This document shows positions 16,482 through 34,178 of a stretch of DNA of 64,000 nt, one piece after another (position 1 is the stretch's first letter; every line of letters starts with the position of its first letter). The stretch covers positions 1,172-65,171 of the forward strand of contig CAZLUT010000002.1 of the NCBI GenBank assembly GCA_964562805.1. The letters are read 5' to 3'. A model generated the notes under the pieces. The model had not been told where the DNA came from. It searched no databases and saw only the letters and a program-made list of their open reading frames with translations. Source of the DNA: an uncultured bacterium. Lineage in GTDB: Bacteria > Omnitrophota > Omnitrophia > Omnitrophales > CAZLUT01. A program made the translations under genes and the position numbers.

Positions 16482-16544
16482 TCCACAATCGTTTGGTGAT
16501 AGCTATAAATTTAAGTGTCTATAAGGTTTGGATTTGTTTATAAT

Positions 16545-16573: not shown

Positions 16574-16629
16574 AGGCTGCGTTATTTTAAGCATTATTAA
16601 GCTGGAAGTAGTAATCAAGAAAGGTGATC

Positions 16630-17604: not shown

Positions 17605-17619
17605 TATTTTCTTAAATCC

Positions 17620-19973: not shown

Positions 19974-19975
19974 AA

Positions 19976-21133
19976 GTGAAAAATAATAAGCGTATTCCTT
20001 ATTCTTGCCAATGGATTGATGAAAAAGATATTGAAGCGGTTGTGTCAGTTTTAAAATCAGATTTTATCACTCAAGGACCGAAAGTTGCTGAATTCGAGGA
20101 GAAGTTCGCTAAAAAGGTGGGTTCAAAATATGCCGTGGCTGTTGCGAATGGAACCGCGGGGCTTCATTTGGCGGCTTTGGCGCTTGATTTAAAAGAAGGT
20201 GATGAGGTAATCACGTCTCCTATTTCTTTTTTAGCGACGTCAAACGCGGCTTTTTATGTAGGCGCAAAACCTATTTTTGCAGACATTGATCCAAAGACCC
20301 TTTGCTTAGATGTAAAGCAAGTTAAAAAAAAGATCACTCCAAAAACAAAAGCAATTTTTCCAGTCCATTTTGCGGGCCAACCAGCCGCTTTGGAGGAGTT
20401 GTCTCAATTGTGCAAAAAACACGGTTTGTATATGGTTGAAGATGCCTGCCATGCTTTGGGAGCTCAGTATAAGCAGTCTATGGTTGGAGATTGTCAGTAT
20501 TCAAATATGGCCGTTTTTAGTTTTCATCCCGTTAAACATTTAGCAACAGGCGAGGGGGGAATGGTTACTACCAATAGCGAGAACTTGTATCAAAAGCTTT
20601 GTGATCTGCGGAGCCATGGAATGGTTCGAGATCGTGGAAGATTTGAATTAAATGATGAAGGGCCTTGGTGCTATGAAATGCAGTCTTTGGGGTTTAATTA
20701 TCGAATGACTGATATGCAGGCAGCTTTAGGTGTTTCTCAACTCGAGAAGATTGATATGTTTGTAAGTAAAAGGCGCGAGATTGCAAACCGGTATATCGAG
20801 GCATTTAAAGAATTAAAATTAGTCCGAGTTCCGGAATATATCAATGATACAGTTAATTCCCATCATTTATTTATAATTCAGCTCAATTTAAGAAATCTTA
20901 ATAAAACTCGAGCCGAAATTTTCGAAGCCTTAAAAAGCGAAGGTTTGGGGCTTCAAATTCATTATATTCCAATTCCAAGGCAGCCCTTTTATAAGAAAAA
21001 AGGGTACAACTACAAAGATTATCCGGTTGCTGAATCTTTTTATAAATCAACCATTTCAATACCGCTTTTTCCAAAGATGACCGAAGAAGAAGTGGATTAT
21101 GTTATTTCGATTGTTAAAAAGATTTTAAGCTAA
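19976..21133 (+). CDS. DegT/DnrJ/EryC1/StrS-family PLP sugar aminotransferase; with gmd possibly a GDP-perosamine synthase
   Basis: DFITQGPKVAEFEEKFAKKVGSKYAVAVANGTAGLHLA, FSFHPVKHLATGEGG carrying the PLP lysine, and NYRMTDMQAALG. GTG start. Confidence 0.8.
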   Translation: MKNNKRIPYSCQWIDEKDIEAVVSVLKSDFITQGPKVAEFEEKFAKKVGSKYAVAVANGTAGLHLAALALDLKEGDEVITSPISFLATSNAAFYVGAKPIFADIDPKTLCLDVKQVKKKITPKTKAIFPVHFAGQPAALEELSQLCKKHGLYMVEDACHALGAQYKQSMVGDCQYSNMAVFSFHPVKHLATGEGGMVTTNSENLYQKLCDLRSHGMVRDRGRFELNDEGPWCYEMQSLGFNYRMTDMQAALGVSQLEKIDMFVSKRREIANRYIEAFKELKLVRVPEYINDTVNSHHLFIIQLNLRNLNKTRAEIFEALKSEGLGLQIHYIPIPRQPFYKKKGYNYKDYPVAESFYKSTISIPLFPKMTEEEVDYVISIVKKILS

Positions 21134-21159
21134 AACCCTCAGTTTTTGGATGGTGTTGA

Positions 21160-21231
21160 ATATTATTGACTATTTTTGATTATTGTTGACATTATTTTAT
21201 TAAACACTTAAAATTTCCTGAATTTTAAGTG
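21160..21231 (+). promoter_or_regulatory. Sigma-70-like promoter with repeated TATTWTTGAY boxes and a perfect 11-bp inverted repeat overlapping the -10
   Basis: ATTATTGAC, CTATTTTTGAT and TTGTTGACA boxes. -35 TTGACA at 21185-21190, 17-bp spacer, -10 TAAAAT at 21208-21213. Palindrome CACTTAAAATT-TCCTG-AATTTTAAGTG at 21205-21231. Confidence 0.45.
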
Positions 21232-21350
21232 TTCAGCTGAGACTTTGGTTGTAGAAGAGATTTAAAATTACGATAAAGAATTTTGTTTTATACTATAATC
21301 AAAAGAGTTTTATTTGAGACAAGACTAATATAAAGTTGGGAGAATTTAAG

Positions 21351-22376
21351 ATGGCTGAGTCGAAGATTAATCAGGAAGAAACATCAGGCGGGCGAGTACT
21401 CAACTCGTCAATTCAAGCAGATCCTGATGTCCCTTTCCGGAAAAAATTTGGCCCCAAGTGGGATGAGTATCGACGTAATTGGGCAGCAGCCTCTCGAATG
21501 GAATACCGTCCTGATTTTCCTCTCTTTGTTCGCTTCGAGACTAAATTTCGCTGCAATCTTCACTGTAAAATGTGTGCGCATGGCCACCCGGATCTTGAGA
21601 AGGGGTATTCGTATGACGGTGAGCTTGATTTTGATACTTATTGCCGCTTGATTGATGAGTGTGCTGAGCATGGTTGTCCTTCAATTGGAATGAATCATGC
21701 CAACGAACCGCTTCTAGACAAAGATTTAATCGAGAGAATTAATTATGCGACTAAGCGTGGAATTATGGATATCCATATGAATACCAATGCAATGTTATTA
21801 ACTGCTGAAATGTCAAAAAAGCTTCTTGATACGGGGTTAACCAGACTTTGTTTTAGTGTGGATGCGCTAACTCCCGAGACTTTTAAAAAGATCCGGGTAG
21901 ATGCTGATTATGATCTCGTTATGTCGAATATTGACACTTTTTTAAATTTACGGGCCGAGCGAAGGCAGGATCTTCCGGTGACTCGGGTTAGCCTTGTTTT
22001 ACAGGAAGATAACAAGCACGAAGTAGATGCTTTTCGCGAGCATTGGGTCAAAAAAGTTGAGTATGTAGCGATTCAAAGGTATGTTCCCATAAGCCCATTT
22101 GATCAAGAAGAGGACGATATGCGCGCTCATGCAACGTCTTTTTCACCTAAAGAAGGCGCTCAAAAGTGTTCCTATGCCTGGGAATCTGTGTTTATCCATG
22201 GCGATGGAACTGTTTTGCCGTGTGCGGCACACAGAGCTCGAAAGATTGCCGTGGGCAATATACACAAAAACACAATTCATGAAATTTGGAATTCGCCCTC
22301 GATGGAAGAGTTGCGGATGAAGCATAAAACGGGGAATTTAGAAGGCTTAAAGCTTTGCCCGACATGCATTCAATAA
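21351..22376 (+). CDS. Radical SAM enzyme with a C-terminal SPASM/twitch-like Cys cluster
   Basis: CNLHCKMC (Cx3Cx2C). C-terminal cysteines CSYAWE...GTVLPCAAH...LKLCPTC. ATG at 21351 has a GGGAGA ribosome-binding site; the track starts at a TTG at 21336. Confidence 0.7.
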   Translation: MAESKINQEETSGGRVLNSSIQADPDVPFRKKFGPKWDEYRRNWAAASRMEYRPDFPLFVRFETKFRCNLHCKMCAHGHPDLEKGYSYDGELDFDTYCRLIDECAEHGCPSIGMNHANEPLLDKDLIERINYATKRGIMDIHMNTNAMLLTAEMSKKLLDTGLTRLCFSVDALTPETFKKIRVDADYDLVMSNIDTFLNLRAERRQDLPVTRVSLVLQEDNKHEVDAFREHWVKKVEYVAIQRYVPISPFDQEEDDMRAHATSFSPKEGAQKCSYAWESVFIHGDGTVLPCAAHRARKIAVGNIHKNTIHEIWNSPSMEELRMKHKTGNLEGLKLCPTCIQ

Positions 22377-22399
22377 ATTAACAATAGGATTTAAGTACG

Positions 22400-23716
22400 A
22401 TGTCAAAAAAGAAAAAACTTGTTTATGTTCCGATGGCGGTTGATTTTATTCATCCAGGACATTTGAATATTATTAAGGAGGCAGCCGAACTCGGCGAAGT
22501 AGTAGTAGGTCTTTTTACAGACAAAGCGATTGCTTCTTATAAGAGACTGCCTTTTATGAGTTATGACCAGCGAAAAGAAGTTATTGAAAATGTGAAAGGT
22601 GTTGATCGAGTTGTGACGCAAGAAACACCTGATTATGAAGTGAATCTCAGGAAATATAAACCAGACTACATGGTGCATGGTACGGATTGGAAAAAAGGCC
22701 CTCTCAAAGAAGTTCGAGCTAAAGCGATTGATATTTTGGCTGAATGGGGTGGCGAGATGGTTGAGCCTGAGTACACGAAGGGTATCTCTTCCACAGAAGT
22801 GCATGTGCATCTTCGAACGATTGGTACTACACCGCAATTGCGTTTAGCCAAACTTCGCCGTCTTTTGGAAGTAAAAAACATGGTCCGCGTTATGGAGGCT
22901 CATAATGGTTTGAGTGCTTTAATTGCGGAAAAAGCAGAGATTAAAGATCCCGGCAAGCCAATTGCCGCATTTGATGCAATTTGGTTAAGCAGCTTAACAG
23001 AGTCAACCGCCAAAGGTAGGCCGGATATTGAATTGGTCGACCTTTCTTCCCGATCGAAAACTATTAACGATATTTTTGAAGTCACCGTAAAACCGATGAT
23101 CTTTGACGGTGATACGGGAGGTATTCCGGAGCATTTTATTTATACGGTTCGCACGCTTGAACGTCTAGGGGTTTCGGCTGTGGTGATTGAAGATAAGACA
23201 GGCCTGAAAATGAATTCGCTTTTTGGTACTGATGTGAAACAGACTCAGGATTCTATTGAAGCTTTTTGTAATAAGATTTCGCTCGGAAAGAAAGCCCAAA
23301 TCACACCGGATTTTATGATTATTGCTCGAATCGAAAGCTTGATTCTTCAAAAAGGTATGGAAGACGCCCTCAAGCGAGCAGTAGCTTATATTGAGGCGGG
23401 CGCGGATGGTATTATGATTCATAGCCGATCAAAAACACCTGATGAAGTTTTGGCTTTTTGCGCTGAATACAAAAAATTCAAAAAGAAGGTACCGTTAGTA
23501 GTTATTCCGACAACATATGCCCAAGTTTCTGAAAAAGAATTAATTGACGCTGGAGTTAATGTGGTGATTTATGCCAACCATCTTCTTCGCGCAGCATACC
23601 CGGCAATGGTTAAAACGGCAGAATCTATTTTGCATCATGGCCGTTCAATGGAGGCGTCGAACGATTTTTGTATGCCAGTATCTGAGATGCTGGAGATTCT
23701 AGCTAATAAATACTAA
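22400..23716 (+). CDS. pepM: Fusion of a cytidylyltransferase (TagD-like HxGH) and phosphoenolpyruvate mutase
   Basis: N-terminal FIHPGHLNII...GISSTEVH, a TagD-like CTP-transferase pattern. The C-terminal domain has the isocitrate-lyase/PEP-mutase fold with the PEP-mutase-specific motif EDKTGLKMNS (EDKxxxxxNS). Confidence 0.8.
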   Translation: MSKKKKLVYVPMAVDFIHPGHLNIIKEAAELGEVVVGLFTDKAIASYKRLPFMSYDQRKEVIENVKGVDRVVTQETPDYEVNLRKYKPDYMVHGTDWKKGPLKEVRAKAIDILAEWGGEMVEPEYTKGISSTEVHVHLRTIGTTPQLRLAKLRRLLEVKNMVRVMEAHNGLSALIAEKAEIKDPGKPIAAFDAIWLSSLTESTAKGRPDIELVDLSSRSKTINDIFEVTVKPMIFDGDTGGIPEHFIYTVRTLERLGVSAVVIEDKTGLKMNSLFGTDVKQTQDSIEAFCNKISLGKKAQITPDFMIIARIESLILQKGMEDALKRAVAYIEAGADGIMIHSRSKTPDEVLAFCAEYKKFKKKVPLVVIPTTYAQVSEKELIDAGVNVVIYANHLLRAAYPAMVKTAESILHHGRSMEASNDFCMPVSEMLEILANKY

Positions 23717-23741
23717 CGCACCACCTTGTTAGGAAGTTTTT

Positions 23742-24881
23742 GTGTTAAATTGTGCTGATTTTTTTAGGGTCTTAACTCAAAAAGGCGTTCAATTTTATTG
23801 CGGTGTTCCTGATTCTTTGCTCAAATCCTTTTGTGCTTATTTATCTGACGCACTCCCTGAAGATAAAAATATAATTGCCGTTAATGAAGGAGCTGCGGTT
23901 GCGTTGGCTTCCGGAGTTTATATGGCGACAGGACAACCAGCCGTTGTTTATATGCAGAATTCGGGAGAAGGGAATGCAGCGAATCCTCTTCTCTCGCTTG
24001 CCGATTCCAAAGTATACAGTATCCCTATGTTGCTATTAGTGGGATGGCGTGGAGAGCCTGGAGTGAAGGATGAGCCACAGCATATTAAGCAGGGAGAGGT
24101 TACTTTAGCGCTTTTAGATGCGATGGGTATTCGGTATGAGATACTTCCATCTGATGTAAAATTGGCCGAAGCGGCTATCCAGAGAGCTTTTGAATATATG
24201 AATTTGAAGAAAGCTCCTTATGCCCTAATTATTCGTAAGGACACTTTTGAGCCTTACGCTTCTACTGCGACACGCGCCGAAAATAACTACTCACTTAGCC
24301 GTGAAGATGCGATACAAGAAATTATTCAATTTACAAAAAACATGCAAAATCAGCCCGCTTTTGTATCCACTACCGGAATGACTTCTCGAGAACTTTTTGA
24401 AAACCGAGCCAAGAATAGAGAATCGTTAAGCTCTGATTTTCTTACGGTAGGCTCAATGGGTCACGCATCTTCGATTGCCTTAGGACTTGCATTAAATTTA
24501 CCCAATCGGGATGTTTTTTGTGTTGATGGAGATGGTGCTATGCTGATGCATATGGGGAGCTTAGCGACCATTGGCAGCTCCGGTGTTAAGAATTTTAAAC
24601 ATATCCTGATTAATAACGGAGCACATGACTCCGTAGGCGGTCAGCCTACTTGCGGGTTTAAAGTCAATTTCCGAGAGATTGCCAAGGCTTGTGGTTACAC
24701 CAATACTTGGTTAGCAACGAATAAGGATGAATTAAAAGAATGTTTGAAGCAAATGGTTACAAAAGAAGATTTAGAGCTTTTGGAAATTCGAGTAAAAAAA
24801 GGAGCTAGGAAAGATTTGGGTCGCCCCACTTCCTCGCCAGGAGAGAATAAAATTCAATTTATGGAATATTTAAAAGGTTAA
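23742..24881 (+). CDS. ppd: Phosphonopyruvate decarboxylase (TPP-dependent)
   Basis: N-terminal GVQFYCGVPDSLLKSF. TPP-binding motif GDGAMLMHMGSLATIG...NNGAHDSVGGQ. Size roughly 379 aa, immediately downstream of pepM. GTG start. Confidence 0.8.
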   Translation: MLNCADFFRVLTQKGVQFYCGVPDSLLKSFCAYLSDALPEDKNIIAVNEGAAVALASGVYMATGQPAVVYMQNSGEGNAANPLLSLADSKVYSIPMLLLVGWRGEPGVKDEPQHIKQGEVTLALLDAMGIRYEILPSDVKLAEAAIQRAFEYMNLKKAPYALIIRKDTFEPYASTATRAENNYSLSREDAIQEIIQFTKNMQNQPAFVSTTGMTSRELFENRAKNRESLSSDFLTVGSMGHASSIALGLALNLPNRDVFCVDGDGAMLMHMGSLATIGSSGVKNFKHILINNGAHDSVGGQPTCGFKVNFREIAKACGYTNTWLATNKDELKECLKQMVTKEDLELLEIRVKKGARKDLGRPTSSPGENKIQFMEYLKG

Positions 24882-24886
24882 GATCG

Positions 24887-25603
24887 ATGATAAATGTAAT
24901 TGCTATAGATGGTCCTTCATATGTTGGTAAAAGCACAGTAGCTCGTTCGTTGGCTGCCTTATTGGGTTATGACTTTATTAATACTGGCCATATGTTTCGC
25001 GTGGTCGCACGAGAATGTCTTTTAAGAAATCTTTCTGTAAAGAAGGAAGGTGAGGTTGCAGATCTGGCGCATTGTCTTGATATTCAGTTTGAAAGTAATG
25101 AAAAAGGCAACTCGAGAACTCTGGTTAACGGTGAAGATTTAACCGAAGCTTTAGAGGGGCATGAGATTATGCTTTTAGCTGCCAAAGTGGCTCAGATTGG
25201 AAAGTTGCGGGATATTTTAACTGAGAAGCAGCGCTTGTATGCCGACAAAAAGATGATTGTCATGGAGGGCCGAGACATTGGCTCAATTGTTTTTCCTGAT
25301 GCAAAGTGGAAATTTTTTATTACAGCTTCGATGGAAATTCGTGCTAAGCGAATGTATAAAATTATGAATGAAGCTGAGAAGAAGAATTGCTCTGATTACC
25401 ATACGTTGATTCCAAAGCTAGAAGAGATTGATGAGGCCGACCGCAATCGCAAGATTTCGCCGCTTAGAATCGCCGATGATGCAATTATTTATGATAATTC
25501 TGACAGTCCTAGTGAACATGAAGATTCGTTGATTTTAAAATACTACATTACACACACGGACGAGATTGTTAAAAATACAGAAATTCTGAAGTTTAAAAAA
25601 TAA
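24887..25603 (+). CDS. cmk: Cytidylate kinase
   Basis: IAIDGPSYVGKSTVARSLA P-loop, GRDIGSIVFPDAKWKFFITAS and RDRNRKISPLRIADDA align closely with canonical Cmk. Confidence 0.75.
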   Translation: MINVIAIDGPSYVGKSTVARSLAALLGYDFINTGHMFRVVARECLLRNLSVKKEGEVADLAHCLDIQFESNEKGNSRTLVNGEDLTEALEGHEIMLLAAKVAQIGKLRDILTEKQRLYADKKMIVMEGRDIGSIVFPDAKWKFFITASMEIRAKRMYKIMNEAEKKNCSDYHTLIPKLEEIDEADRNRKISPLRIADDAIIYDNSDSPSEHEDSLILKYYITHTDEIVKNTEILKFKK

Positions 25604-25613
25604 GGAAAGATTC

Positions 25614-26480
25614 ATGGAAACTATTAAAGAGCTTAAAGTGATCTGTCAAACAACAGCGCAAAAAGACATTTCAAATGTTTATATGCGCTATATTTGCCGT
25701 CCGATTTCAATTCGTATCACACGCTTTCTTATTCCAACAGCAGTCACTCCGGACCAAGTTAGCTTTGCGATGATTGTTACGGGTGTTATTGCGAGCCTTA
25801 TATTTTTAATAGCGCATCCTATAAGTTTTTTCCTGGCAGCGCTCCTTCTTCAGTTTTGGTATATTTTAGATTGTGTCGATGGAGAATTGGCTCGTTATCG
25901 CTCCTATTCCAAAAATAAAGAAGTGATCCAGGATAAGGCTACTTTGCCGATAACGGGTGCTTATTGGGATTATCTCAATCATTACATTGTTCACGGGCTT
26001 GTACCGCTTACGATTTCTTACGGATTGTTTCTTAAGACACAAAATTCGTTTTGGATTTTACTCGGATTTGTCACCTCGACTTTCCAAGTGATGTTGCTTG
26101 CTATTCACGATACGCAATGCCGCGCCTATCTAACTAAAATCCGGAAAACACTTCCGACTCATGTATTGAATGTTAAATCGGCGTCGGAAGTGGATGAGGC
26201 TGCGCCAGAAAAAAAGAAAATGAAAGGAATAATGTTTTTGAAGCTGCCATTTGTGACCGTCCATTATCTTTCGACTTATCCTTCGGTGATGAATGTGATA
26301 ACTGTGCTTGCTCTTACGTCGTGCTTAACAGGATTTGGGAGTGATTTTAGAGGTTTCTTTCTTTGGTTTTATGCGTTGGGATCAGGTGTTGTTTTTTTAG
26401 GTTTAGCTTATAAGCTGCTCCATGACCGTGGTCTCGATAAGGAATTTGATAAAGAATTTTATTTAGAAAAACGCACCTAA
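25614..26480 (+). CDS. CDP-alcohol phosphatidyltransferase-family membrane protein
   Basis: Polytopic membrane protein with the DxxDGxxAR start of the CDP-OH phosphotransferase motif (LDCVDGELARYRS). Confidence 0.55.
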   Translation: METIKELKVICQTTAQKDISNVYMRYICRPISIRITRFLIPTAVTPDQVSFAMIVTGVIASLIFLIAHPISFFLAALLLQFWYILDCVDGELARYRSYSKNKEVIQDKATLPITGAYWDYLNHYIVHGLVPLTISYGLFLKTQNSFWILLGFVTSTFQVMLLAIHDTQCRAYLTKIRKTLPTHVLNVKSASEVDEAAPEKKKMKGIMFLKLPFVTVHYLSTYPSVMNVITVLALTSCLTGFGSDFRGFFLWFYALGSGVVFLGLAYKLLHDRGLDKEFDKEFYLEKRT

Positions 26481-26533
26481 GATGAATTTAAAATTTCCGC
26501 CACCATCAAAAAACCAATCTCCTTTTCTTTTGC

Positions 26534-27574
26534 GTGAAAAATAAAAAAATAAAATCAATTAACTGCCTTTTTTTGTTGGATGCTGGTCCAGGAATAGGGA
26601 TGGGACACTTGAGGAGATGTCTTGTTTTGGCCGAAAAGCTGAAGCAAAAAGGTGTTAAAAATATATGTTTTGCAACTAAAACGCCGAATGATATTTCAGT
26701 TTTGGTTGGAGCAAAATTCCCAATTATTCATTTGCCTTCTACTGACAGTCTAAAAAATAGAACCGATCTTTTGCAGTCAAAAATAAAAGATTACCGGACA
26801 AAACTTATTATTGTGGATAGTTACAAGATAGCGGTCAATTCACTTCGAGCGATAGAGAAGAGAATAGCACCTGTAATTGTGTTAGATGATTATTTGCACT
26901 TATCTCATTATCCGGTTTCCGGAATTATTAACTACAACCTTGGCGCTGAAAAGCGTACTTATAAATGTGAGTCAGAAACCAGATTGTTTCTTGGAGCGAA
27001 ATACGCCCTTATTTCCGGAGAATTTATCAAAGAAAAAAAGTCAGCTCGGGTTCAAGGGATAGGGCGTCGGTTATTTGTGTCTTTAGGCGCAAATCCAGCG
27101 GGAAGCTTGCTCAAAAAAACGCTTAAAGCGATTGGGAACATAGAAGAAAATCTGAAGATTTCTTTGGTTTTGAGTCCTTGTTATCCGAATAGAGATAAGT
27201 ATAAAAGCGGCAAGGTTTCTCTGGTTGCTCCGAACGCTATCGCCCGGGCAATGAAGCGGTGCGACTTTGCCTTAAGTGCTGCCGGGGTTACAAGTTATGA
27301 GCTTGTATTTATGAGGATTCCAACGCTATTGTTTGTATTAGCTCGGAACCAAAGCCGAGTTGCAGAAGAAATGCAGCGTTGTGGCGCGGCTAAAAATTTA
27401 GGTTGGTTAAAAACTATTTCAACTAGTAAACTAACAGTTGAAATCAGCAATTTTGTGAATAGTAAAATGAAAGTGGCTGGCAAAAAAGTTACTAAGTTTA
27501 ATAAGATTGACGGTAAGGGTTCAGATCGTCTCGCTAGTTTTATTATTTCTGAATATTTGAGGGGGAAAAAGTGA
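26534..27574 (+). CDS. pseG: PseG-like UDP-sugar hydrolase (GT28-like; pseudaminic acid pathway)
   Basis: IGMGHLRRCLVLAEK matches the PseG/SpsG G-x-G-H-x-x-R motif. By-eye alignment with C. jejuni PseG along the length (LIIVDSYKIA, GAKYALISGEF, FVSLGANP). GTG start. Confidence 0.65.
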   Translation: MKNKKIKSINCLFLLDAGPGIGMGHLRRCLVLAEKLKQKGVKNICFATKTPNDISVLVGAKFPIIHLPSTDSLKNRTDLLQSKIKDYRTKLIIVDSYKIAVNSLRAIEKRIAPVIVLDDYLHLSHYPVSGIINYNLGAEKRTYKCESETRLFLGAKYALISGEFIKEKKSARVQGIGRRLFVSLGANPAGSLLKKTLKAIGNIEENLKISLVLSPCYPNRDKYKSGKVSLVAPNAIARAMKRCDFALSAAGVTSYELVFMRIPTLLFVLARNQSRVAEEMQRCGAAKNLGWLKTISTSKLTVEISNFVNSKMKVAGKKVTKFNKIDGKGSDRLASFIISEYLRGKK

Positions 27575-28305
27575 AGATTGTTGCTACTATCGAAGCGAGG
27601 ATGGGTTCCAGCCGGCTTCCTGGAAAGATTCTTAAAAATATTTTGGATAAGCCGACTCTAGAGCTGCTCGTTGAGCGGGTTAGAAAATCAAAGCACATTG
27701 AGCAGGTGGTTGTAGCCACTACGGTTGATCCGAGTGACAACATCACCGAAGAAAATTGCCGCAAGATCGGTATTGATTGTTTCCGAGGAAGCTCCGAAGA
27801 TGTTTTGAATAGAGTGCTTCAAACAGCCAAAGCATATCAGGCTGATTTAATCGTAGAATTAACAGGCGACTGCCCGCTTTTAGATCCAGAAATTATTGAT
27901 AGTGTTATCGAAAAGTATCTTAGCGGTTCATTTGATTATGTAAGCAATGTTTTGGAAAGAACTTATCCGAGAGGCTTGGATACCCAGGTTTTTTCAACGG
28001 CTGTTTTAGAGAAAGTGTCTCAAATCACTCAGGATCCGGCTGACAGAGAAAACGTTTCGCTTTATATCTATGAAAACCCCGAGCAATTTAAGCTAGGGAA
28101 CGTTAAAGCTTCCTCGGAGCATAACAGGCCGGATTTAAGATTAACCGTTGATACGGTTGAGGATTTTAAATTAATTAGTTCGATCTATAATGAGTTGTAT
28201 CCAAAAAACAAAGACTTTAATTTGTCGGATGTGATTAAGCTTTTAAATCAAAAGCCTGAACTCAGCAAGCTTAACGCGGATGTTCAGCAGAAGAAAGCAA
28301 GATGA
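27571..28305 (+). CDS. pseF: CMP-nonulosonic acid synthetase (acylneuraminate cytidylyltransferase family; PseF/SpsF-like)
   Basis: KIVATIEARMGSSRLPGKILKNI and VVVATT. Size 244 aa. GTG start after a GAGGGGGA ribosome-binding site. Confidence 0.7.
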   Translation: MKIVATIEARMGSSRLPGKILKNILDKPTLELLVERVRKSKHIEQVVVATTVDPSDNITEENCRKIGIDCFRGSSEDVLNRVLQTAKAYQADLIVELTGDCPLLDPEIIDSVIEKYLSGSFDYVSNVLERTYPRGLDTQVFSTAVLEKVSQITQDPADRENVSLYIYENPEQFKLGNVKASSEHNRPDLRLTVDTVEDFKLISSIYNELYPKNKDFNLSDVIKLLNQKPELSKLNADVQQKKAR

Positions 28306-29348
28306 GTGGAGTTGATAAAAAATCAAAAAAACTAAGAGCCGGCATCGTTGGATGCGGTCGAATTGCAAGTACGTTTGATTCGGATCCTAAGCGGAAGAAT
28401 ATTGCTACTCATGCCGGTGCTTATACAGCGTCACCTGGTGTTGACTTGGTAGCGGCATGTGATCTCGATGAGAAAAAAGTGGCAGCCTTTGGCGAGCGCT
28501 GGAAGGTTAAAAATTTATATACCAACTTTAATAAAATGCTTAAAAGTGAGAAGTTGGATATTCTAAGTCTCTGCACTTGGGCTGGATCTCACTTTCAATT
28601 GGCAAAAACTGCGATTAATAGCGGCGTAAAAGCGGTGTTTTGTGAGAAGCCTATAACAGTTTCTTTGAGTGAGGCGGATCAGCTGATTAAATTAGCCAAA
28701 CGCAAAAAAGTTGTATTTGCGGTTAATCACTCGAGGAGATGGGATTCAGGTCTTCAAAAAATAAAGTCTGCGATTAATCAGGGTAAGTTGGGTGAAATTC
28801 GCCAGGTGAGCTGTTATTACACTGCTGGCATTTCAAACACTGGAACTCACTTATTTGACTTATTAAATTTTTTCTTTGGTGATGCGAAACAGGTAATTGG
28901 CGCTGTTAGCAATTTAGTTGATAAAAAGGGTGCTGATCCAACTGTTTCAGGATTAATAGAGTATAAGAGCGGAACGTTGGTTTCTGTTCAGGGATTGAAT
29001 GTGAATGATTATTTAATTTTTGAGATAGATATTTATGGCTCGAAAGGAAGGATTCGCATTTGTAATAGCGGTTTTAAATCTCAGGTCTGGAAAGTTTTGC
29101 CAAGTGATTATTTTTCAGGCTACAAAGAGCTTAAAGAGGTAAAGTCATCTTTCGATTTATCCAAAAAAGAACAGATGAAAAACGCCGTCAAAGATATAAT
29201 GCAATGCATAAAAACAAAAAAGAAACCGTCCTCAAGCGCTAAGGATGGCATGAAAGCACTGGAGCTTATTTGCGCCATGAAGCTCTCATGCAAAAAAGGG
29301 ACCAAAGTAGATTTGCCGCTTAAAAATAGAAATATTACAACGGAGTAA
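28302..29348 (+). CDS. Gfo/Idh/MocA-family NAD(P)-dependent sugar oxidoreductase
   Basis: LRAGIVGCGRIAS Rossmann N-terminus and EKP motif CEKPIT. ATGA overlap with the upstream gene. Confidence 0.75.
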   Translation: MSGVDKKSKKLRAGIVGCGRIASTFDSDPKRKNIATHAGAYTASPGVDLVAACDLDEKKVAAFGERWKVKNLYTNFNKMLKSEKLDILSLCTWAGSHFQLAKTAINSGVKAVFCEKPITVSLSEADQLIKLAKRKKVVFAVNHSRRWDSGLQKIKSAINQGKLGEIRQVSCYYTAGISNTGTHLFDLLNFFFGDAKQVIGAVSNLVDKKGADPTVSGLIEYKSGTLVSVQGLNVNDYLIFEIDIYGSKGRIRICNSGFKSQVWKVLPSDYFSGYKELKEVKSSFDLSKKEQMKNAVKDIMQCIKTKKKPSSSAKDGMKALELICAMKLSCKKGTKVDLPLKNRNITTE

Positions 29349-29351
29349 AAG

Positions 29352-30590
29352 ATGACTGATCCAATCAGAACAAAGCCATTCCCCCAACACCCCACTTTTG
29401 ATGAAGAGGCAAAGCGTGGAGTTCTTGATGTGTTGTCATCGGGCGTGCTTTCCGGATTTGTAGCTAATTCGGGGCCTAATTTTTTAGGTGGTCCGAAAGT
29501 CAAGGAATTAGAAGCAGCTTTCTGCGATTATTTTGGCGTAAAATATGCGATGACCGTTAATTCTGCAACGGCGGGGCTGCACGCTGCGGTTGCTGCGTGT
29601 GGCATTGGGCCGGGGGATGAGGTGATCGTGCCTCCTTATACGATGTCAGCTTCCGCGAGTGCGGTATTGATGCAGAGTGCTGTGCCGCTGTTTGCAGACA
29701 TTCAAGATGATATCTATTGCGTTGATCCAAAATCTATTGAAGAGAGAATTACATCTCGAACCAAAGCTATTATTGTGGTTCATTTATTTGGGCATCCGGC
29801 AGACATGGACTCTATTTCAAAAATCGCCAAAAAACACGGCTTAAAAATTATTGAGGACTGTGCTCAGGCTCCCGGGGTCAAATATAAAAATAAATTTGTC
29901 GGAACCATCGGTGATATTGGAGTTTTTAGCTTCAATCAGCATAAAACTATTACAACGGGTGAAGGCGGCGTTGTTATTACCAACAGTGAAGAAGCTGCTT
30001 TAAAAGTGCGCCTAGTTCGTAATCATGGCGAAGCCGTTTTGGAAAACATGGAAATAAATGATTATTCAAACACTCTCGGCTGGAATTATCGAATGACCGA
30101 GCTGGAGGCGGCCGTTGGCATTACTCAATTTAAGAAGCTCGACACCCTAACGAAACACAAACAAGAGTTGGCGAATGTTCTAAATGAAAAGCTTAAGAAA
30201 TTTGAAGAGTTAAGTTTGCCGGTAGCACTGGATGGATGTAGTCATGGCTATTTTGTATATCCAATGAAGTGGCGCGCATCTAAAACAGGTCTGTCGCGCG
30301 ATCAAATAGTCGAAGCTTTAAATAAGGAGGGAATCCCTTTTGGCAAAGGCTATGTTCGGCCTCTTTATCTTTTGCCGCTTTTTCAAAAGCAGATATGTTT
30401 TGGCAGTAACGGCTGGCCTTTTACATCAATACCTGAGAAGGAGAGGCAGAAATATAAAAAAGGACTTTGTCCTGTTGCTGAGAGGATGTACGAAAAGGAG
30501 CTTATGCTGACAGGTGTTTGTTATTGGCCGGTTACGAAAGAAGATATCATGGATGTTGTAAAGGCATTCGAGAAGATATTAAAAAAATGA
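29352..30590 (+). CDS. pseC: DegT-family PLP aminotransferase, PseC-like (UDP-4-keto-6-deoxy-sugar aminotransferase)
   Basis: FCDYFGVKYAMTVNSATAGLHAA, FSFNQHKTITTGEGG and NYRMTELEAAVG. Confidence 0.75.
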   Translation: MTDPIRTKPFPQHPTFDEEAKRGVLDVLSSGVLSGFVANSGPNFLGGPKVKELEAAFCDYFGVKYAMTVNSATAGLHAAVAACGIGPGDEVIVPPYTMSASASAVLMQSAVPLFADIQDDIYCVDPKSIEERITSRTKAIIVVHLFGHPADMDSISKIAKKHGLKIIEDCAQAPGVKYKNKFVGTIGDIGVFSFNQHKTITTGEGGVVITNSEEAALKVRLVRNHGEAVLENMEINDYSNTLGWNYRMTELEAAVGITQFKKLDTLTKHKQELANVLNEKLKKFEELSLPVALDGCSHGYFVYPMKWRASKTGLSRDQIVEALNKEGIPFGKGYVRPLYLLPLFQKQICFGSNGWPFTSIPEKERQKYKKGLCPVAERMYEKELMLTGVCYWPVTKEDIMDVVKAFEKILKK

Positions 30591-31651
30591 AAAGAAAAAA
30601 ACAGATTAAAATCAATAATAAGCCGATAGGTGATGGGGCACCCGTTTTTGTCATAGCGGAAGCCGGTTCTAATCACAATGGAAGTCTAAGGCAAGCAAAG
30701 AAACTTATTGATATTGCTGCTAAGGCGGGGGCGGACGCAGTTAAGTTTCAGACGTTTTCTGCAGATAAATTGTATTCGAAAAAAACCCCGATGATGAGTT
30801 ATCTCAGAAAAAACAAGCTGGTAAAGAAAAAAGAAACGGTTTGGGATCTTCTAAAAAAACTTGAAATTCCGAGAGTTTGGCATTCCGAATTAGCTAAGTA
30901 TTGCCGTTTAAAAAAAATATTTTTTCTTTCGACTCCATTTGATCTAAAGGCTGTTGATCAATTGGAAGCGGTTAATATGGCTGCTTATAAAATCGCCTCA
31001 TATGAAATAACCCATCTTCCTCTCTTGGAGAAAGTTGCAAAAACAGGGAAGCCGATTATTCTGTCGACCGGCATGGCAGATTTGGATGATATTAGGGTTG
31101 CATTAAAAACTATATATAGAACAGGAAATAAAAAAGTTGTTCTTTTGCATTGCGCTATCAACTACCCACCCAAATTTGAAGATCTTCATTTAAAAGCGAT
31201 GCAGACGATAAGGAACGAATTTAAGGTGCCCGTTGGTTTTTCAGATCATACGATGGGACTGACATCCGATGTTGCTGCTGTTGCTTTAGGGGCATGCGTA
31301 ATTGAAAAACATTATACGATTAGCCGGAAGCTCGAAGGCCCTGACCATTCTTTTTCATTGGAGCCTGACGAATTAAAAAACATGATCCAAGGTATCCGCG
31401 ACACCGAACGTGCTTTGGGCCTACCAATTAAACGAGCGACAAAAGCGGAAAAGGAAATGTATCGTCTTGGCCGGAGAAGTTTGGTTGCGGCCTGCAGCAT
31501 TCCAAAGGGAGCCAAAATATCTCGTAGGATGATCGAAGTAAAAAGACCGGGCTTTGGAATTCCAACCAAAGATATGAATCAAGTTATTGGCCGGCTAGCA
31601 TCTCGGGATATCGAAACAGACGATATTCTTTCGTGGAAGATGATTCGGTAA
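30587..31651 (+). CDS. pseI: Nonulosonic acid synthase (NeuB/PseI family) with a C-terminal SAF domain
   Basis: IGDGAPVFVIAEAGSNHNGSLRQAKKLIDIAAKAGADAVKFQTF. ATGA overlap start at 30587; the track's 30518 start lies inside the upstream gene. Confidence 0.85.
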   Translation: MKRKKQIKINNKPIGDGAPVFVIAEAGSNHNGSLRQAKKLIDIAAKAGADAVKFQTFSADKLYSKKTPMMSYLRKNKLVKKKETVWDLLKKLEIPRVWHSELAKYCRLKKIFFLSTPFDLKAVDQLEAVNMAAYKIASYEITHLPLLEKVAKTGKPIILSTGMADLDDIRVALKTIYRTGNKKVVLLHCAINYPPKFEDLHLKAMQTIRNEFKVPVGFSDHTMGLTSDVAAVALGACVIEKHYTISRKLEGPDHSFSLEPDELKNMIQGIRDTERALGLPIKRATKAEKEMYRLGRRSLVAACSIPKGAKISRRMIEVKRPGFGIPTKDMNQVIGRLASRDIETDDILSWKMIR

Positions 31652-31750
31652 TTTAACCGACGTCTCTTTGTTGCTGTCGGCTGGTTTTTAGGTAACAGAT
31701 TAATCAAAATCATAAATATATTGGTTTTTAAAGATTTATTTTGATAAGAC

Positions 31751-31790
31751 TTGACTATTATTGACAACTATAAGCTATTTTTGATAAGAT
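31751..31790 (+). promoter_or_regulatory. Second copy of the TTGACTATT(A/T)TTGA promoter box pair upstream of the HTH-pseB sub-operon
   Basis: TTGACTATTATTGACAACTATAAGCTATTTTTGATAAGAT. Its first 13 nt match 21166-21178 at 12 of 13 positions, and the CTATTTTTGAT box is shared. Confidence 0.4.
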
Positions 31791-31839
31791 TTATACGGTC
31801 TCAAAAATAACATAAGAGAATATAGAGGGTTAGTATTAT

Positions 31840-32100
31840 ATGGATGAAATCAAAGAAAATGCTGTTTATACGCCAGCAGAAACTCAAAAAATTTTAAAAA
31901 TCAGTGCAAGCACCATGACTCGCCTCATTAAAAAAGGATTGATTCATGCGGCCAAAATAGGGGGGCAATACCGCATTTTAGGTAAAGAAATTTTAAGAGC
32001 GATGTCGCCAAAATTGGAAGATAAAGTAGGAAAAATATACAACAAAGGCCGGCAATGGGTTCATGAAGACGATGATCCAAACAGAAAGGTCAAAAAATGA
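31840..32100 (+). CDS. Small excisionase-family/MerR-like helix-turn-helix DNA-binding protein
   Basis: TPAETQKILKISASTMTRLIKKGLIHAAKIGGQYRI matches the HTH_17/excisionase pattern. Size 86 aa. Its stop overlaps the pseB start as ATGA. Confidence 0.55.
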   Translation: MDEIKENAVYTPAETQKILKISASTMTRLIKKGLIHAAKIGGQYRILGKEILRAMSPKLEDKVGKIYNKGRQWVHEDDDPNRKVKK

Positions 32101-33095
32101 AAGATTTTTTCAAAAATAAGACAATTTTAGTCACGGGCGGCACAGGATCGTTTGGTAAAAAATTCATTAAAATGACTCTCGAAAACTTTTCACCAAAAAA
32201 AGTAATTATTTATTCCAGGGACGAAATGAAACAGTGGGAAATGCAGGATGAGTATAAAGAGTACGATAAAAGAAATGTGCTTAGGTATTTTATAGGCGAT
32301 GTTAGAGACCGAGAGCGTTTAGAGAGGGCATTCCACGGTGTTGATTATGTGGTGCATGCTGCCGCAACTAAAATTGTACCGACAGCAGAATACAATCCAA
32401 TTGAATGCATCAAGACCAACGTCAATGGCGCTATTAACGTGATTGATGCTGCAATTGACCAAAAGGTAAAAAGAGTCGTAGCTCTTAGCACCGACAAGGC
32501 AAGTAATCCTATTAATTTGTATGGTGCTACCAAGTTATGTTCCGATAAATTGTTTGTGGCTGCAAACGCATACACAGGAGACCAAGATACTCGTTTGTCT
32601 GTTGTTAGATATGGGAATGTGATGGGTAGTCGCGGCTCTATCATTCCTTTTTTTAGGTCTATCAAAAGCAAAAATAAGATTCCAATTACAGATATAAGGA
32701 TGACACGATTCATGATCACACTTGAGCAGGGTGTGGAATTGGTTTGGCTGGCGTTGCATGAAGCAATCGGTGGTGAGATCTATGTGCCTAAAATCCCTTC
32801 GATGAAGGTGGTTGATATTGCCAAAGGAATCGCACCAAACGCTGAACACAATATTATAGGGATCCGACCTGGAGAGAAGATACATGAATCGCTGATTAGC
32901 GAAGAAGATGCTCGAAATACTTATGAATATAAGGATTGTTACAAGATCCTGCCGGCTATTTATGATTGGCATGAATGTGCGACTCGAATAGGTGACGGAA
33001 AGAGGTGTGAGGAGGGTTTTTCTTATGCAAGCGGTAACAATTCCAAATGGATGACAAGTGAAGAACTGTCTAACTGGATGGAGAGGGAATATTAA
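32097..33095 (+). CDS. pseB: UDP-GlcNAc 4,6-dehydratase/5-epimerase (PseB/FlaA1/CapD family)
   Basis: KTILVTGGTGSFGKKFIKM, YxxxK (YGATKLCSDK). Size 332 aa. Confidence 0.85.
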   Translation: MKDFFKNKTILVTGGTGSFGKKFIKMTLENFSPKKVIIYSRDEMKQWEMQDEYKEYDKRNVLRYFIGDVRDRERLERAFHGVDYVVHAAATKIVPTAEYNPIECIKTNVNGAINVIDAAIDQKVKRVVALSTDKASNPINLYGATKLCSDKLFVAANAYTGDQDTRLSVVRYGNVMGSRGSIIPFFRSIKSKNKIPITDIRMTRFMITLEQGVELVWLALHEAIGGEIYVPKIPSMKVVDIAKGIAPNAEHNIIGIRPGEKIHESLISEEDARNTYEYKDCYKILPAIYDWHECATRIGDGKRCEEGFSYASGNNSKWMTSEELSNWMEREY

Positions 33096-33558
33096 TAGTA
33101 AAAAAAATTTCACCGTTAGAGTTGCCAGGCAGCCCGATTCAGATTGCTTGTTTGCGTGGCGAAATGATGCCGAGACGATTAGAAATTCACTAACTGGTAA
33201 ATGCGTTACAAGAAAAGAACATGAGAAATGGTTTAAAAATGTTATTAACTCGCCGGAATACAAAATTTTTATTGCGGTCAAACCCAACCATCATCCAATA
33301 GGAGTTGTTCGATACACGATGAAGAAAAAGAAAAATTTTGAAGTACATATCAATTTAAATCCCCGGGAGCGCGGCAAAGGGTGGGGAAGCCGCCTCATTA
33401 AGCGGTGTAACAACCTTTTAAAAAGATCTGCTGCTGGAAGCCGAGTGGTAGCCCAGGTTAAAGAAGATAATTTTCCATCGCAATCAGTTTTTGAAAGGGC
33501 CGGTTACCGGCGTCACTCAAAAACTGGCGGAACGATTACTTACCAGTCAATTCTATAA
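33058..33558 (+). CDS. pseH: GNAT N-acetyltransferase, PseH-like
   Basis: LFAWRNDAETIRNS and EHEKWFKNV align with C. jejuni PseH (IFKWRNHPDINQFM, EHLRFLKKL). GNAT core RERGKGWGSRLI. The start is uncertain because the ATG at 33058 overlaps pseB by 38 nt. Confidence 0.6.
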   Translation: MKNCLTGWRGNINSKKNFTVRVARQPDSDCLFAWRNDAETIRNSLTGKCVTRKEHEKWFKNVINSPEYKIFIAVKPNHHPIGVVRYTMKKKKNFEVHINLNPRERGKGWGSRLIKRCNNLLKRSAAGSRVVAQVKEDNFPSQSVFERAGYRRHSKTGGTITYQSIL

Positions 33559-33566
33559 ATAATGCC

Positions 33567-34118: not shown

Positions 34119-34178
34119 ACAATTGCTGATGTTGCGGAACAGCTGAAAAAGTTCAAATAAATTAAAAAGGAGAAAAAA

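Follow-up and report, generated by a model that had tools for sequence, protein, structure and literature searches.

What does a radical SAM enzyme contribute at the head of a phosphonate gene module that is itself inserted into a pseudaminic-acid locus? The first-pass annotation of the 64-kb window (the whole stretch of DNA that was analysed) proposed a new tailoring step on either the phosphonate or the nonulosonic sugar; we retain the phosphonate and not the sugar, and favour over late tailoring a role in which the gene takes the place of an iron alcohol dehydrogenase (Fe-ADH). Owing to its constant pairing, in a rare set of bacteria, with PEP mutase and phosphonopyruvate decarboxylase (Ppd) and the loss of the usual third enzyme, this uncharacterised iron-sulfur protein probably gives rise to a novel type of cell-surface phosphonate decoration. 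In the reading we favour, to which we assign a probability of roughly 0.6, it forms a fixed trio with a cytidylyltransferase (CyTase)-PEP mutase fusion and Ppd, stands in the place of Fe-ADH, and leads to a head group other than 2-hydroxyethylphosphonate (HEP).

The gene is enclosed in a forward-strand open reading frame that runs from a TTG codon at 21336 to 22376, GGGAGA is found eight bases 5′ of the ATG at 21351, and the product is identical over its full length to database protein P0001. The 217-bp, AT-rich spacer that separates it from pseC contains the best sigma-70-like match across a 14-kb scan (19000-33000). The dedicated promoter proposed earlier is upheld to the extent that such a candidate exists, but since the whole scan gave fewer sites than shuffled sequence (21 versus 32, no enrichment), it is graded as plausible only. 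No terminator-like site was found in the interval that follows pseC, and no riboswitch or other RNA element matched Rfam at gathering score in the entire window, the 217-bp leader giving chance-level matches only. Downstream, the annotated 23-bp gap to the fusion gene is correct, with the next gene starting at 22400.

Table 1. Features of the phosphonate module and its surroundings (positions in the window).
Feature	Position	Strand	Basis or remark
PseC aminotransferase	19976..21133	+	TIGR03588 516.5 bits, cut-off 423.5
Candidate sigma-70-like promoter, TTGACA-17-TAAAAT	21186..21214	+	consensus match only, 11/12
Radical SAM/twitch-domain enzyme, 341 aa	21351..22376	+	first gene of phosphonate module
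CX3CX2C motif C68-N-L-H-C72-K-M-C75, predicted SAM-binding [4Fe-4S] cluster	21552..21575	+	invariant in 21 homologues
Twitch domain, four Cys (C273/C291/C336/C339)	22167..22367	+	PF13186 match, Cys conservation, BtrN alignment
Fom1-like cytidylyltransferase-PEP mutase fusion	22400..23716	+	CTP_transf_like + PEP_mutase; TIGR02320
Cytidylyltransferase (CyTase) domain of fusion	22412-22816	+	
PEP mutase domain of fusion	22853-23704	+	
Phosphonopyruvate decarboxylase (Ppd)	23742..24881	+	TIGR03297 492.9 bits, cut-off 312.5
Cytidylate kinase (Cmk)	24887..25603	+	TIGR00017 195 bits, cut-off 135.55; E. coli Cmk E = 4e-35
CDP-alcohol phosphotransferase-family membrane protein	25614..26480	+	PF01066 22.6 bits, cut-off 22
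Rest of nonulosonic (pseudaminic-type) acid gene set	26534..35312	+	

The protein is a member of the radical SAM superfamily, as indicated by a Pfam Radical_SAM score of 57.7 bits (cut-off 29.5) and by the Cx3Cx2C site reported in the first-pass annotation, which is formed by C68, C72 and C75 and which in this superfamily lies within a partial TIM barrel. Its C-terminal cysteine cluster, previously described as SPASM or twitch, is matched both by Pfam SPASM (PF13186, 53.4 bits against a cut-off of 21.5, residues 273-339) and by the twitch family NF033640 (residues 273-340). The pattern is C273-X12-G-X4-C291-X44-C336-X2-C339, with the stop codon two residues further on, and conforms to the three or four cysteines of a twitch domain (CX9-15GX4C ... 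CX2C). A full SPASM domain has seven or eight conserved cysteines and two auxiliary [4Fe-4S] clusters (PMC9477430), whereas four C-terminal cysteines are present here; as these four are invariant, the domain is a twitch rather than a seven-cysteine SPASM domain, and the Pfam SPASM model matches anyway because it covers the first half common to both. All seven cysteines (C68, C72, C75, C273, C291, C336 and C339) are conserved throughout the 21 homologues used to judge cysteine conservation, at identities down to 28%, and all relatives end 1-4 residues past the CxxC. The twitch domain is predicted to hold one fully cysteine-ligated auxiliary [4Fe-4S] cluster.

Radical_SAM and SPASM were the only domains found in a Pfam scan of the protein, with no cobalamin-binding domain among them. 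Lack of the B12-binding PF02310 rules out a class B cobalamin-dependent methyltransferase such as Fom3 or PhpK, and for the same reason the contrast drawn earlier with these two enzymes is correct. Other known identities were likewise rejected: MoaA (GTP 3′,8-cyclase) on score (TIGR02666 68.9 bits against a cut-off of 284) and on having three C-terminal cysteines rather than four, with an open iron site in its auxiliary cluster, anSME and RiPP maturases on the cysteine count and on scores far under cut-offs, and the haem-pathway enzymes AhbD and NirJ on similarly low NCBIfam scores. The closest solved relative by sequence is BtrN, the 2-deoxy-scyllo-inosamine dehydrogenase of butirosin biosynthesis (PDB 4M7T/4M7S), so that the comparison with BtrN was apt. 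The twitch domain aligns end to end with BtrN residues 182-257, including the four cluster cysteines of the latter. An orthologous DOIA dehydrogenase is nevertheless rejected, given an identity of 16-23% and the absence of aminocyclitol genes from the window and 46 related loci; no butirosin or 2-deoxystreptamine genes lie near the window gene. The window protein further differs from BtrN in a conserved N-terminal extension of ~55 residues (TSAGRVxN ... KWxxYRxxW) and an insertion of ~35 residues. It may use BtrN-type dehydrogenase chemistry; its substrate is probably an anionic phosphonate instead of an aminocyclitol.

The genes that follow are consistent with the synthesis and transfer of a CMP-linked phosphonate. 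The fusion passes TIGR02320 at 403.7 bits (cut-off 319.55). Cmk would recycle CMP or act on a CMP-phosphonate, and the adjacent membrane protein, which carries the motif DCVDGELAR...GAYWDYLNH, is a candidate transferase that would place the phosphonyl group of CMP-phosphonate on a hydroxyl. In Campylobacter, a non-orthologous member of the CDP-alcohol phosphotransferase superfamily adjoins the radical SAM gene, and by lineage the trio is accompanied by three unrelated CDP-alcohol-type transferases (CDP-OH_P_transf, LicD or TagF-like), a variety that we count as support for a CMP-linked donor. The upstream edge of the pseudaminic-acid locus is marked by PseC; this DegT protein is PseC proper by its TIGR03588 score, and a BtrS-like partner or a phosphonoacetaldehyde transaminase is ruled out in its place. 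The gene set beyond the module comprises PseG, a CMP-sugar synthetase, a GFO/IDH oxidoreductase, a second DegT, NeuB, PseB, two GNATs and a WbuX/PseA-like amidotransferase, and the glycan that these genes make is the likely phosphonate acceptor.

Linkage of the radical SAM gene to pepM was examined in 33 distinct related loci whose sequence continues for 1.4 kb or more downstream. In 32 of them the start of the fusion gene lies -6 to +55 bp from the stop codon of the radical SAM gene, in line with the neighbourhood conservation that had been suggested as a check. At the remaining locus (L030) a stand-alone cytidylyltransferase adjoins the radical SAM gene and no mutase is present, such that a cytidylyltransferase, fused or not, is the direct neighbour in 33/33. 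The window protein shares 55-87% identity with the members of the pepM-linked clade, and across 35 loci the identity of the radical SAM protein to its window counterpart closely tracks that of the fusion (r = 0.99) and of Ppd (r = 0.94). Genomes were searched for the clade with an alignment of 13 closer sequences, and in an exhaustive profile search clade members score >600 bits and all other relatives ≤331 bits. The window protein falls within the clade by identity (at least ~50%), by CyTase adjacency and by the CyTase residues described below. Minimal loci consist of the trio only, as in an Oscillospiraceae MAG, where it lies amid housekeeping genes; exceptions to the intact trio are a divergent Ppd (L038), a missing Ppd (L040) and a truncated remnant (L034). 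The names of ten relatives (8 of the 9 best non-clade matches and two longer fusion proteins) are all generic.

In the common Fom1-like order, mutase and decarboxylase are followed by Fe-ADH, and the arrangement fusion-Ppd-Fe-ADH occurs in 2 sampled Fom1-like loci and in 56/80 metagenome loci. The radical SAM gene is present in one of these 80 loci, none of which has both genes. Furthermore, no Fe-ADH was found within 10 kb on either side in 46 radical SAM loci (mostly MAGs), nor in the 64-kb window, and overall the two genes do not co-occur in ~125 loci. The radical SAM enzyme and the PhpC/FomC-type Fe-ADH are unrelated in fold and cofactors, yet occupy the same third slot beside a Fom1-like fusion and Ppd in a mutually exclusive manner. 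From this pattern we infer that the radical SAM enzyme replaces Fe-ADH at the phosphonoacetaldehyde node, rather than performing a late tailoring step. Since reduction of the aldehyde is not an expected reaction for a radical SAM enzyme, the product should differ from HEP, although an unlinked reductase or transaminase beyond the ±10 kb examined could supply HEP or AEP.

The cytidylyltransferase domain provides a second indication of a different head group. It shares 56% identity with the HEP-specific domain of Fom1 (5x3d, E = 5e-50) and keeps the overall fold and fusion architecture, but carries P11/A13/F39/P101/L102/A109 at six positions where Fom1 has G/S/L/V/Q/V. The P/A/F/P/L/A combination is found in 33/33 radical-SAM-linked fusions and in 0/80 others. 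Among the latter, the 55 Fe-ADH-linked sequences have G/S/L/V/Q/V as their commonest residues (76-100%) with no radical-SAM-type residue at any of the six positions, and the combination is absent from all 25 unclassified fusions. In choline- and ethanolamine-phosphate cytidylyltransferases the counterpart of position 11 in the alignment is the Asp of the xDGxxD strand, a residue that presumably contacts the head group, and by analogy with CCT and GCT structures, rather than from coordinates, we provisionally place all six positions in the head-group pocket. Two of the six changes remove a polar side chain (Ser, Gln). Part of the signature could be phylogenetic, as the radical-SAM-linked fusions are perhaps one clade; the asymmetry between 6 switched positions in 136 CyTase residues and 1 in 286 mutase residues (Fisher p = 0.005) argues against a purely phylogenetic origin without excluding it.

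These data bear directly on the best-surviving alternative, which we consider unlikely, namely that an unlinked housekeeping reductase makes HEP, the fused CyTase converts it to CMP-HEP, and the radical SAM enzyme tailors CMP-HEP at C2, for instance by oxidation or substitution. The similarity of the CyTase to the Fom1 domain speaks for this route, as does Fom3, the sole radical SAM enzyme known to partner Fom1, which acts on CMP-HEP (PMC6697681), and the radical SAM-CyTase adjacency is kept without a mutase in L030. The fosfomycin system indeed resembles the present one in combining a radical SAM enzyme, a Fom1-type fusion and Ppd around a two-carbon phosphonate, but Fom3 is a cobalamin-dependent class B methyltransferase, the window protein has a twitch domain in place of a B12-binding one, and a FomC-type dehydrogenase is missing here. 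Moreover, the HEP-type signature shared by Fom1 and the Fe-ADH-linked fusions is replaced in every radical-SAM-linked fusion, Fe-ADH is found in none of the 46 radical SAM loci, and oxidation of CMP-HEP would merely restore the aldehyde level already given by Ppd.

Modification of the nonulosonic sugar or another sugar nucleotide, by a BtrN- or DesII-like oxidation or epimerisation and with incidental pepM linkage, is very unlikely. Both the window and C. jejuni do carry the module inside pseudaminic-acid loci, sugars are the substrates of the closest solved relatives (BtrN, DesII and BlsE), and paralogues of 32-47% identity occur in glycan loci without pepM, which counts against a phosphonate-only reading; the 32%-identical paralogue even resides in a locus syntenic with the nonulosonic cluster of the window. 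Orthologues of 57-87% identity, however, keep mutase and Ppd where nonulosonic genes are absent within 10 kb, as in Smithella-type MAGs (86-87% identity, with an ABC exporter next to the trio), Oscillospiraceae, L014 and H. pullorum, and the bit-score gap separates the pepM-linked clade from all other relatives. Because of these loci, among them those of orthologues at 68-87% identity, the enzyme is assigned to the phosphonate branch and not to the nonulosonic sugar. We regard as similarly improbable an action on the cytidine nucleotide part of the donor (viperin- or MoaA-like ribose chemistry). It would fit the tight coupling to a cytidylyltransferase even without mutase, the presence of viperin and MoaA among the structural neighbours of the protein, and the Cj1415-like 3′-kinase and CysQ-like nucleotidase added in Campylobacterota loci, which imply that the nucleotide moiety is processed there; but these two genes are lineage-specific while the radical SAM gene occurs throughout the clade, and neither the absence of a phosphonoacetaldehyde-processing enzyme nor the changed head-group signature of the CyTase would be explained. 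That the enzyme should be a maturase of proteins, peptides or cofactors (anSME-, RiPP- or MoaA-like), encoded nearby by chance, is barely credible, for the weak NCBIfam similarity over the radical SAM core (metalloenzyme maturases, MoaA, AhbD, NirJ) stays far under every cut-off, four C-terminal cysteines contrast with seven or eight in SPASM enzymes of the anSME and RiPP types, no conserved precursor peptide or sulfatase gene occurs in the loci examined, and pepM linkage is near-universal.

Under the favoured replacement of Fe-ADH, a pathway may be drawn as follows. By family membership, PEP mutase would convert PEP to phosphonopyruvate and Ppd would decarboxylate this to phosphonoacetaldehyde. 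The radical SAM enzyme would then cleave SAM reductively, its 5′-deoxyadenosyl radical taking a C2 hydrogen from phosphonoacetaldehyde (free or CMP-bound), and the substrate radical would be resolved with help of the four-cysteine auxiliary cluster to give a non-HEP head group. The remodelled pocket of the fused cytidylyltransferase would, on the model of Fom1, accept this group to form a CMP-phosphonate, from which the CDP-alcohol phosphotransferase-like protein would pass the phosphonyl group on to a hydroxyl in the pseudaminic-acid glycan, with the freed CMP being recycled by Cmk. The order of the radical SAM and CyTase steps may be inverted, as Fom3 acts after cytidylylation and L030 pairs the radical SAM and CyTase genes without a mutase; with cytidylylation as the earlier step, the pocket signature would be uninformative on the final product.

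As to the product, our first choice, though itself of low probability, is a C1-C2 scission that yields methylphosphonate. The second, of about equal probability, is a two-electron oxidation of BtrN type that would turn the aldehyde hydrate into phosphonoacetate, and the loss of Ser and Gln from the pocket is in the wrong direction for it; the rest of the probability is spread over unnamed products. In the methylphosphonate route, the 5′-deoxyadenosyl radical would abstract the aldehyde (or hydrate) hydrogen, C2 would be lost as CO or formate, and the resulting phosphonomethyl radical would be quenched to methylphosphonate, which the less polar cytidylyltransferase would convert to CMP-methylphosphonate. 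Counting against it, we know of no radical SAM precedent for acyl-radical decarbonylation. MpnS and HEPD, non-haem iron enzymes that depend on O2, break the C1-C2 bond of HEP via a phosphonomethyl radical, and no other route that takes a two-carbon phosphonate to methyl- or hydroxymethylphosphonate is known to us. Any analogy to the window enzyme would be functional only, since sequence and fold are unrelated; hosts of the pepM-linked clade are all anaerobes or microaerophiles.

In Campylobacterota the trio is followed by the Cj1415-like kinase (~40% identity), in H. pullorum also by the CysQ-like nucleotidase, in a manner reminiscent of the O-methyl phosphoramidate (MeOPN) pathway of C. jejuni (Cj1415-Cj1420). 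Upstream of the H. pullorum trio lie, in addition, two methyltransferase genes, whose products share 69-74% identity with the pair at the end of a cluster syntenic with cj1415c-cj1420c. Cj1415-Cj1418 make CDP-phosphoramidate 3′-phosphate (PMC11800397), and by analogy a 3′-phospho-cytidine donor logic is likely common to the MeOPN and Campylobacterota phosphonate loci. The two nevertheless differ in that a C-P rather than an N-P bond is made, with mutase, Ppd and radical SAM enzyme replacing glutamine kinase, cytidylyltransferase and hydrolase; the window has Cmk and lacks the methyltransferase pair. If the Campylobacterota product were methylphosphonate, the donor would be 3′-phosphorylated and the group O-methylated after transfer, giving a C-P isostere of the O-methyl phosphoramidate capsule decoration. 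An oxygen-independent methylphosphonate synthase with a CMP-methylphosphonate donor and this isostere is, taken as a whole, a speculative proposition that we would not expect to hold.

The association of pepM with this radical SAM gene is not wholly new. One sentence (section 18) of Li & Horsman (2022, PMC8942020), the sole mention found in full-text literature, describes a Campylobacter ppm-ppd core that has genes for a radical SAM protein and an adenylylsulfate kinase on its flanks (GCF 385, classed as 'post-Ppd other'); it gives no function and does not analyse the enzyme, and no branch-point enzyme is assigned to this neighbourhood. The present work extends the family to Smithella-type deltaproteobacteria, and in the window Cmk takes the slot of the APS-kinase-like gene of Campylobacterota loci.

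Two pathogens, Campylobacter jejuni and Helicobacter pullorum, are among the hosts of the module, which in them lies in the flagellin or pseudaminic-acid glycosylation locus; syntrophic anaerobes also carry it. Few branch points after phosphonoacetaldehyde are known to us (transamination, reduction and oxidation, all by conventional enzymes), and the only radical SAM enzymes that we know of in phosphonate biosynthesis are cobalamin-dependent methyltransferases. If our reading is true, a cobalamin-free twitch enzyme that replaces a dehydrogenase would constitute a new early branch point and, with it, a new phosphonate head group on cell surfaces. Were the product methylphosphonate, which is of biogeochemical interest and implicated in aerobic marine methane production, the family would provide a second, anaerobic biological source of this compound.

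The forward-strand reading frame of the enzyme was confirmed; the longest frame opens with a TTG at 21336, and a GGGAGA ribosome-binding site lies 8 bases ahead of the ATG at 21351, which yields a 341-residue product. This product matches, end to end and at every residue, a protein that was called on three metagenome contigs independently. The enzyme exceeds the gathering scores of both the Pfam Radical_SAM model (57.7 bits) and the SPASM model (53.4 bits), and the CX3CX2C site read in the first-pass annotation lies at C68/C72/C75. The Pfam scan found no cobalamin-binding domain in the enzyme, in agreement with the earlier view that it is not of the cobalamin type of Fom3 and PhpK, and no NCBIfam equivalog matched it at its cut-off. 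The C-terminal region contains exactly four cysteines (CX12GX4C-44 residues-CX2C), with the chain ending two residues on; these and the three SAM-cluster cysteines are invariant in 21 homologues with identity down to 28%, all of which terminate just past the CxxC. As SPASM domains have seven or eight cysteines and two clusters, and twitch domains three or four cysteines and one cluster (PMC9477430), the C-terminal domain is assigned as twitch, and the SPASM/twitch-type cluster first proposed stands as twitch but not as full SPASM. BtrN, whose family had been named for comparison, is the best solved relative in a family-profile search (E = 4.5e-24), the two twitch domains aligning end to end with the four BtrN cluster ligands included, and is also the top Foldseek match of the AlphaFold model (pLDDT 89.9). 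The predicted fold places the enzyme in the SPASM/twitch subgroup, without dictating its chemistry.

The fusion gene (CTP_transf_like + PEP_mutase) begins 23 bp downstream, the same gap as annotated, and is followed by genes for phosphonopyruvate decarboxylase (Ppd), cytidylate kinase (Cmk) and a CDP-alcohol phosphotransferase-family membrane protein. The dedicated promoter is less secure, the upstream spacer holding the best sigma-70-like match of the scanned region in a scan without statistical weight (21 sites versus 32 expected in shuffled sequence). The membrane protein barely clears its Pfam cut-off (22.6 bits versus 22) and has a DxxDGxxAR...GxxxD motif with His for the last Asp (GAYWDYLNH). 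The fusion family is very large (at least 8,000 clusters), and the cytidylyltransferase (CyTase) domain of the fusion shares 56% identity with its counterpart in Fom1, a protein that activates 2-hydroxyethylphosphonate (HEP) (PMC6697681). In two sampled members, from Marinomonas and Bacteroidales, the fusion gene is followed by those for Ppd, an iron alcohol dehydrogenase and a TagF-like transferase, in that order; among 80 sampled metagenome fusion loci the dehydrogenase directly follows Ppd in 56, the radical SAM gene occurs in one, and both occur in none. Neither the 46 loci with the radical SAM gene nor the 64-kb window as a whole contains a homologue of the dehydrogenase. This exclusivity argues that the enzyme gene takes the place of the phosphonoacetaldehyde reductase gene. 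Li and Horsman (PMC8942020) place the Campylobacter version among neighbourhoods without a recognised branch-point enzyme, remarking only that ppm-ppd is flanked by radical SAM and adenylylsulfate kinase genes, and our literature search found no paper that characterises the enzyme.

An alignment of 113 distinct fusions was searched for positions that split the radical-SAM-linked from the dehydrogenase-linked group. CyTase residues P11, A13, F39, P101, L102 and A109 are present in 33/33 radical-SAM-linked fusions, whereas dehydrogenase-linked fusions, like Fom1 at 6/6 positions, have G, S, L, V, Q and V (commonest residue in 76-100% of 55 sequences); the radical-SAM-type residues occur in 0/55 of the latter, and their combination in none of 25 unclassified fusions. 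The mutase domain, twice as long, has just one such position (Fisher p = 0.005). Position 11 aligns with the Asp before the GxxD strand of choline- and ethanolamine-phosphate cytidylyltransferases; in the structures of those enzymes this Asp contacts the head group. The Ser-to-Ala, Gln-to-Leu and Leu-to-Phe exchanges would suit a substrate less polar or smaller than HEP, and it is rather doubtful that the enzyme instead tailors CMP-HEP made with an unlinked reductase.

Homologues 55-87% identical occur in Smithella/Syntrophaceae, Desulfonema, Planctomycetaceae, Oscillospiraceae, Mucispirillum, Helicobacter and Campylobacter, every host being an anaerobe or microaerophile. Conservation of the pepM neighbourhood, suggested earlier as a check, was assessed over 34 distinct loci; in 32 of the 33 with enough downstream DNA to judge, the fusion starts -6 to +55 bp past the enzyme stop codon. 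The exception, a Desulfonema MAG (L030), has in its place a stand-alone 164-residue cytidylyltransferase with 5/6 signature residues; the 7-kb contig has purine and amidase genes on either side of these two genes, no mutase domain and no Ppd, which could be a genuine split or an assembly artefact. One further copy (L034) is a truncated remnant, and Ppd is absent only from these two and L040. Identity to the window proteins across loci correlates at r = 0.99 between enzyme and fusion and at r = 0.94 between enzyme and Ppd, and the trio is therefore inherited as a unit. It is housed in pseudaminic-acid loci (window, C. jejuni, C. hyointestinalis), in one LicD-containing glycan locus, beside one O-methyl phosphoramidate (MeOPN)-type cluster, bare amid housekeeping genes in an Oscillospiraceae MAG, and, in the Smithella-type MAGs that are the nearest relatives of the window, next to an ABC exporter. 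Such varied surroundings of a constant trio tie the enzyme to the phosphonate and not to the nonulosonic sugar, the other target first considered, and action on a sugar is very unlikely.

Two unrelated lineages carry the module within a pseudaminic-acid locus: its neighbours are pseC and pseG in the window, and pseI (NeuB) and pseA in C. jejuni. This suggests pseudaminic acid or its glycan as acceptor. Genes upstream of pseC, among them one resembling GDP-mannose 4,6-dehydratase (409 bits in TIGR01472, narrowly below the cut-off of 415), suggest that this surface-glycan region also encodes a second system for sugar modification, one that is lipid-linked. In a Smithella-type MAG (L020) an HlyD/ABC-ABC2 exporter and a 165-residue protein without family match flank the trio, with no transferase nearby; a small-molecule phosphonate might be exported there instead of decorating a glycan.

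By family membership, the mutase converts PEP to phosphonopyruvate, and Ppd phosphonopyruvate to phosphonoacetaldehyde. The enzyme would take the C2 hydrogen from phosphonoacetaldehyde, free or CMP-bound, its fully Cys-ligated auxiliary cluster resolving the substrate radical; the fused CyTase would make the CMP-phosphonate, a CDP-alcohol-type transferase would move the phosphonyl group onto a glycan hydroxyl, and Cmk would recycle CMP. Candidate transferases are CDP-OH_P_transf proteins in the window and Campylobacter (not orthologous), LicD in a further lineage and a TagF-like protein in Mucispirillum. Campylobacterota have a Cj1415-like kinase, sometimes with a CysQ-like nucleotidase, in place of Cmk, which suggests a 3'-phosphorylated donor like that of the MeOPN pathway (PMC11800397). 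That the enzyme acts on the nucleotide moiety is highly improbable, and a role as maturase is more improbable still. The product may be methylphosphonate, formed by C1-C2 scission (probability about 0.2), which fits the less polar pocket, the MeOPN-like gene sets and the confinement to oxygen-avoiding hosts, the last because the known methylphosphonate synthase needs O2; its weakness is that we know of no enzymological precedent for this scission. Phosphonoacetate, which would form if the aldehyde hydrate underwent BtrN-type oxidation, is a similarly tentative product, being the most conservative chemistry but a poor fit to the pocket change.

In H. pullorum, two methyltransferases upstream of the trio are 69-74% identical to the pair closing the MeOPN-type cluster of Ca. 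Campylobacter infans, a Cj1415-like kinase and a CysQ-like nucleotidase lie downstream, and no homologues of the phosphoramidate-making genes Cj1416-1418 were found. This looks like a module swap, whose product would be the C-P counterpart of the O-methyl phosphoramidate decoration. Campylobacter islands start with a short (337-342 residues), very divergent DegT-family aminotransferase; at their end, one or two ATP-grasp ligases are encoded on the opposite strand. These proteins may serve the phosphonate or the N-acylation of the sugar.

Coordinates of the enzyme gene, its settings and its relatives (L, loci in other genomes or MAGs; P, database proteins)
Feature	Coordinates	Remark
Enzyme gene	window 21351-22376 (+)	
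YfhO-family membrane protein, methyltransferase, GT2, ArnT/PMT_2-like transferase	window 13126-19973	5' of pseC
pseC	window 19976-21133	
CDP-alcohol phosphotransferase-like	window 25614-26480	
pseG and nonulosonic genes	window 26534-35312	
pseI (NeuB), pseA, C. jejuni	L001:6065-7096, L001:14696-15832	
Divergent DegT	L001:7174-8187 (C. jejuni); L005:5119-6147 (C. hyointestinalis)	best NCBIfam E = 6e-16, far under all cut-offs
MeOPN-type cluster, Ca. Campylobacter infans	L012:13911-19861	syntenic with cj1415c-cj1420c
Trio surroundings, H. pullorum	L016:8260-9864, L016:13424-14757	same layout in L036
Trio flanks, Smithella-type MAG	L020:4735-9576, L020:13544-14041	
Enzyme gene and stand-alone cytidylyltransferase	L030:1850-3409	
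pepM-free paralogue P0064	L019:10001-11026	
pepM-free paralogue P0056	L129:248-1246	
pepM-free paralogue P0063	L018:10001-10987	

When 1.84 billion representatives were searched exhaustively with a profile, two scored above 600 bits, and these constitute the enzyme clade; the next match reached 331 bits. Below this gap is a wider family of some 1,700 proteins (E up to 1e-30), whose top scorers are about 330 residues long, and none of the wider relatives looked up bears a specific name. The three members sampled from this family (32-47% identical to the enzyme) occupy glycan loci without pepM. One (L019) is syntenic with the nonulosonic cluster of the window (NeuB 38%, CMP-sugar synthetase 44%, DegT 43%, Wzx 46%), and in the others (L018, L129) the paralogue accompanies two B12 radical SAM genes, a methyltransferase and a 2-hydroxyacid dehydrogenase; a further relative, P0314 (635 residues), is named in its source as a fusion to a 2-hydroxyacid dehydrogenase. 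Overall, the first-pass observation is confirmed and its interpretation supported, with refinements. The enzyme clade, uncharacterised, rare and sharply delimited, is worth an experiment; the pathway that it defines is a variant of a known one.
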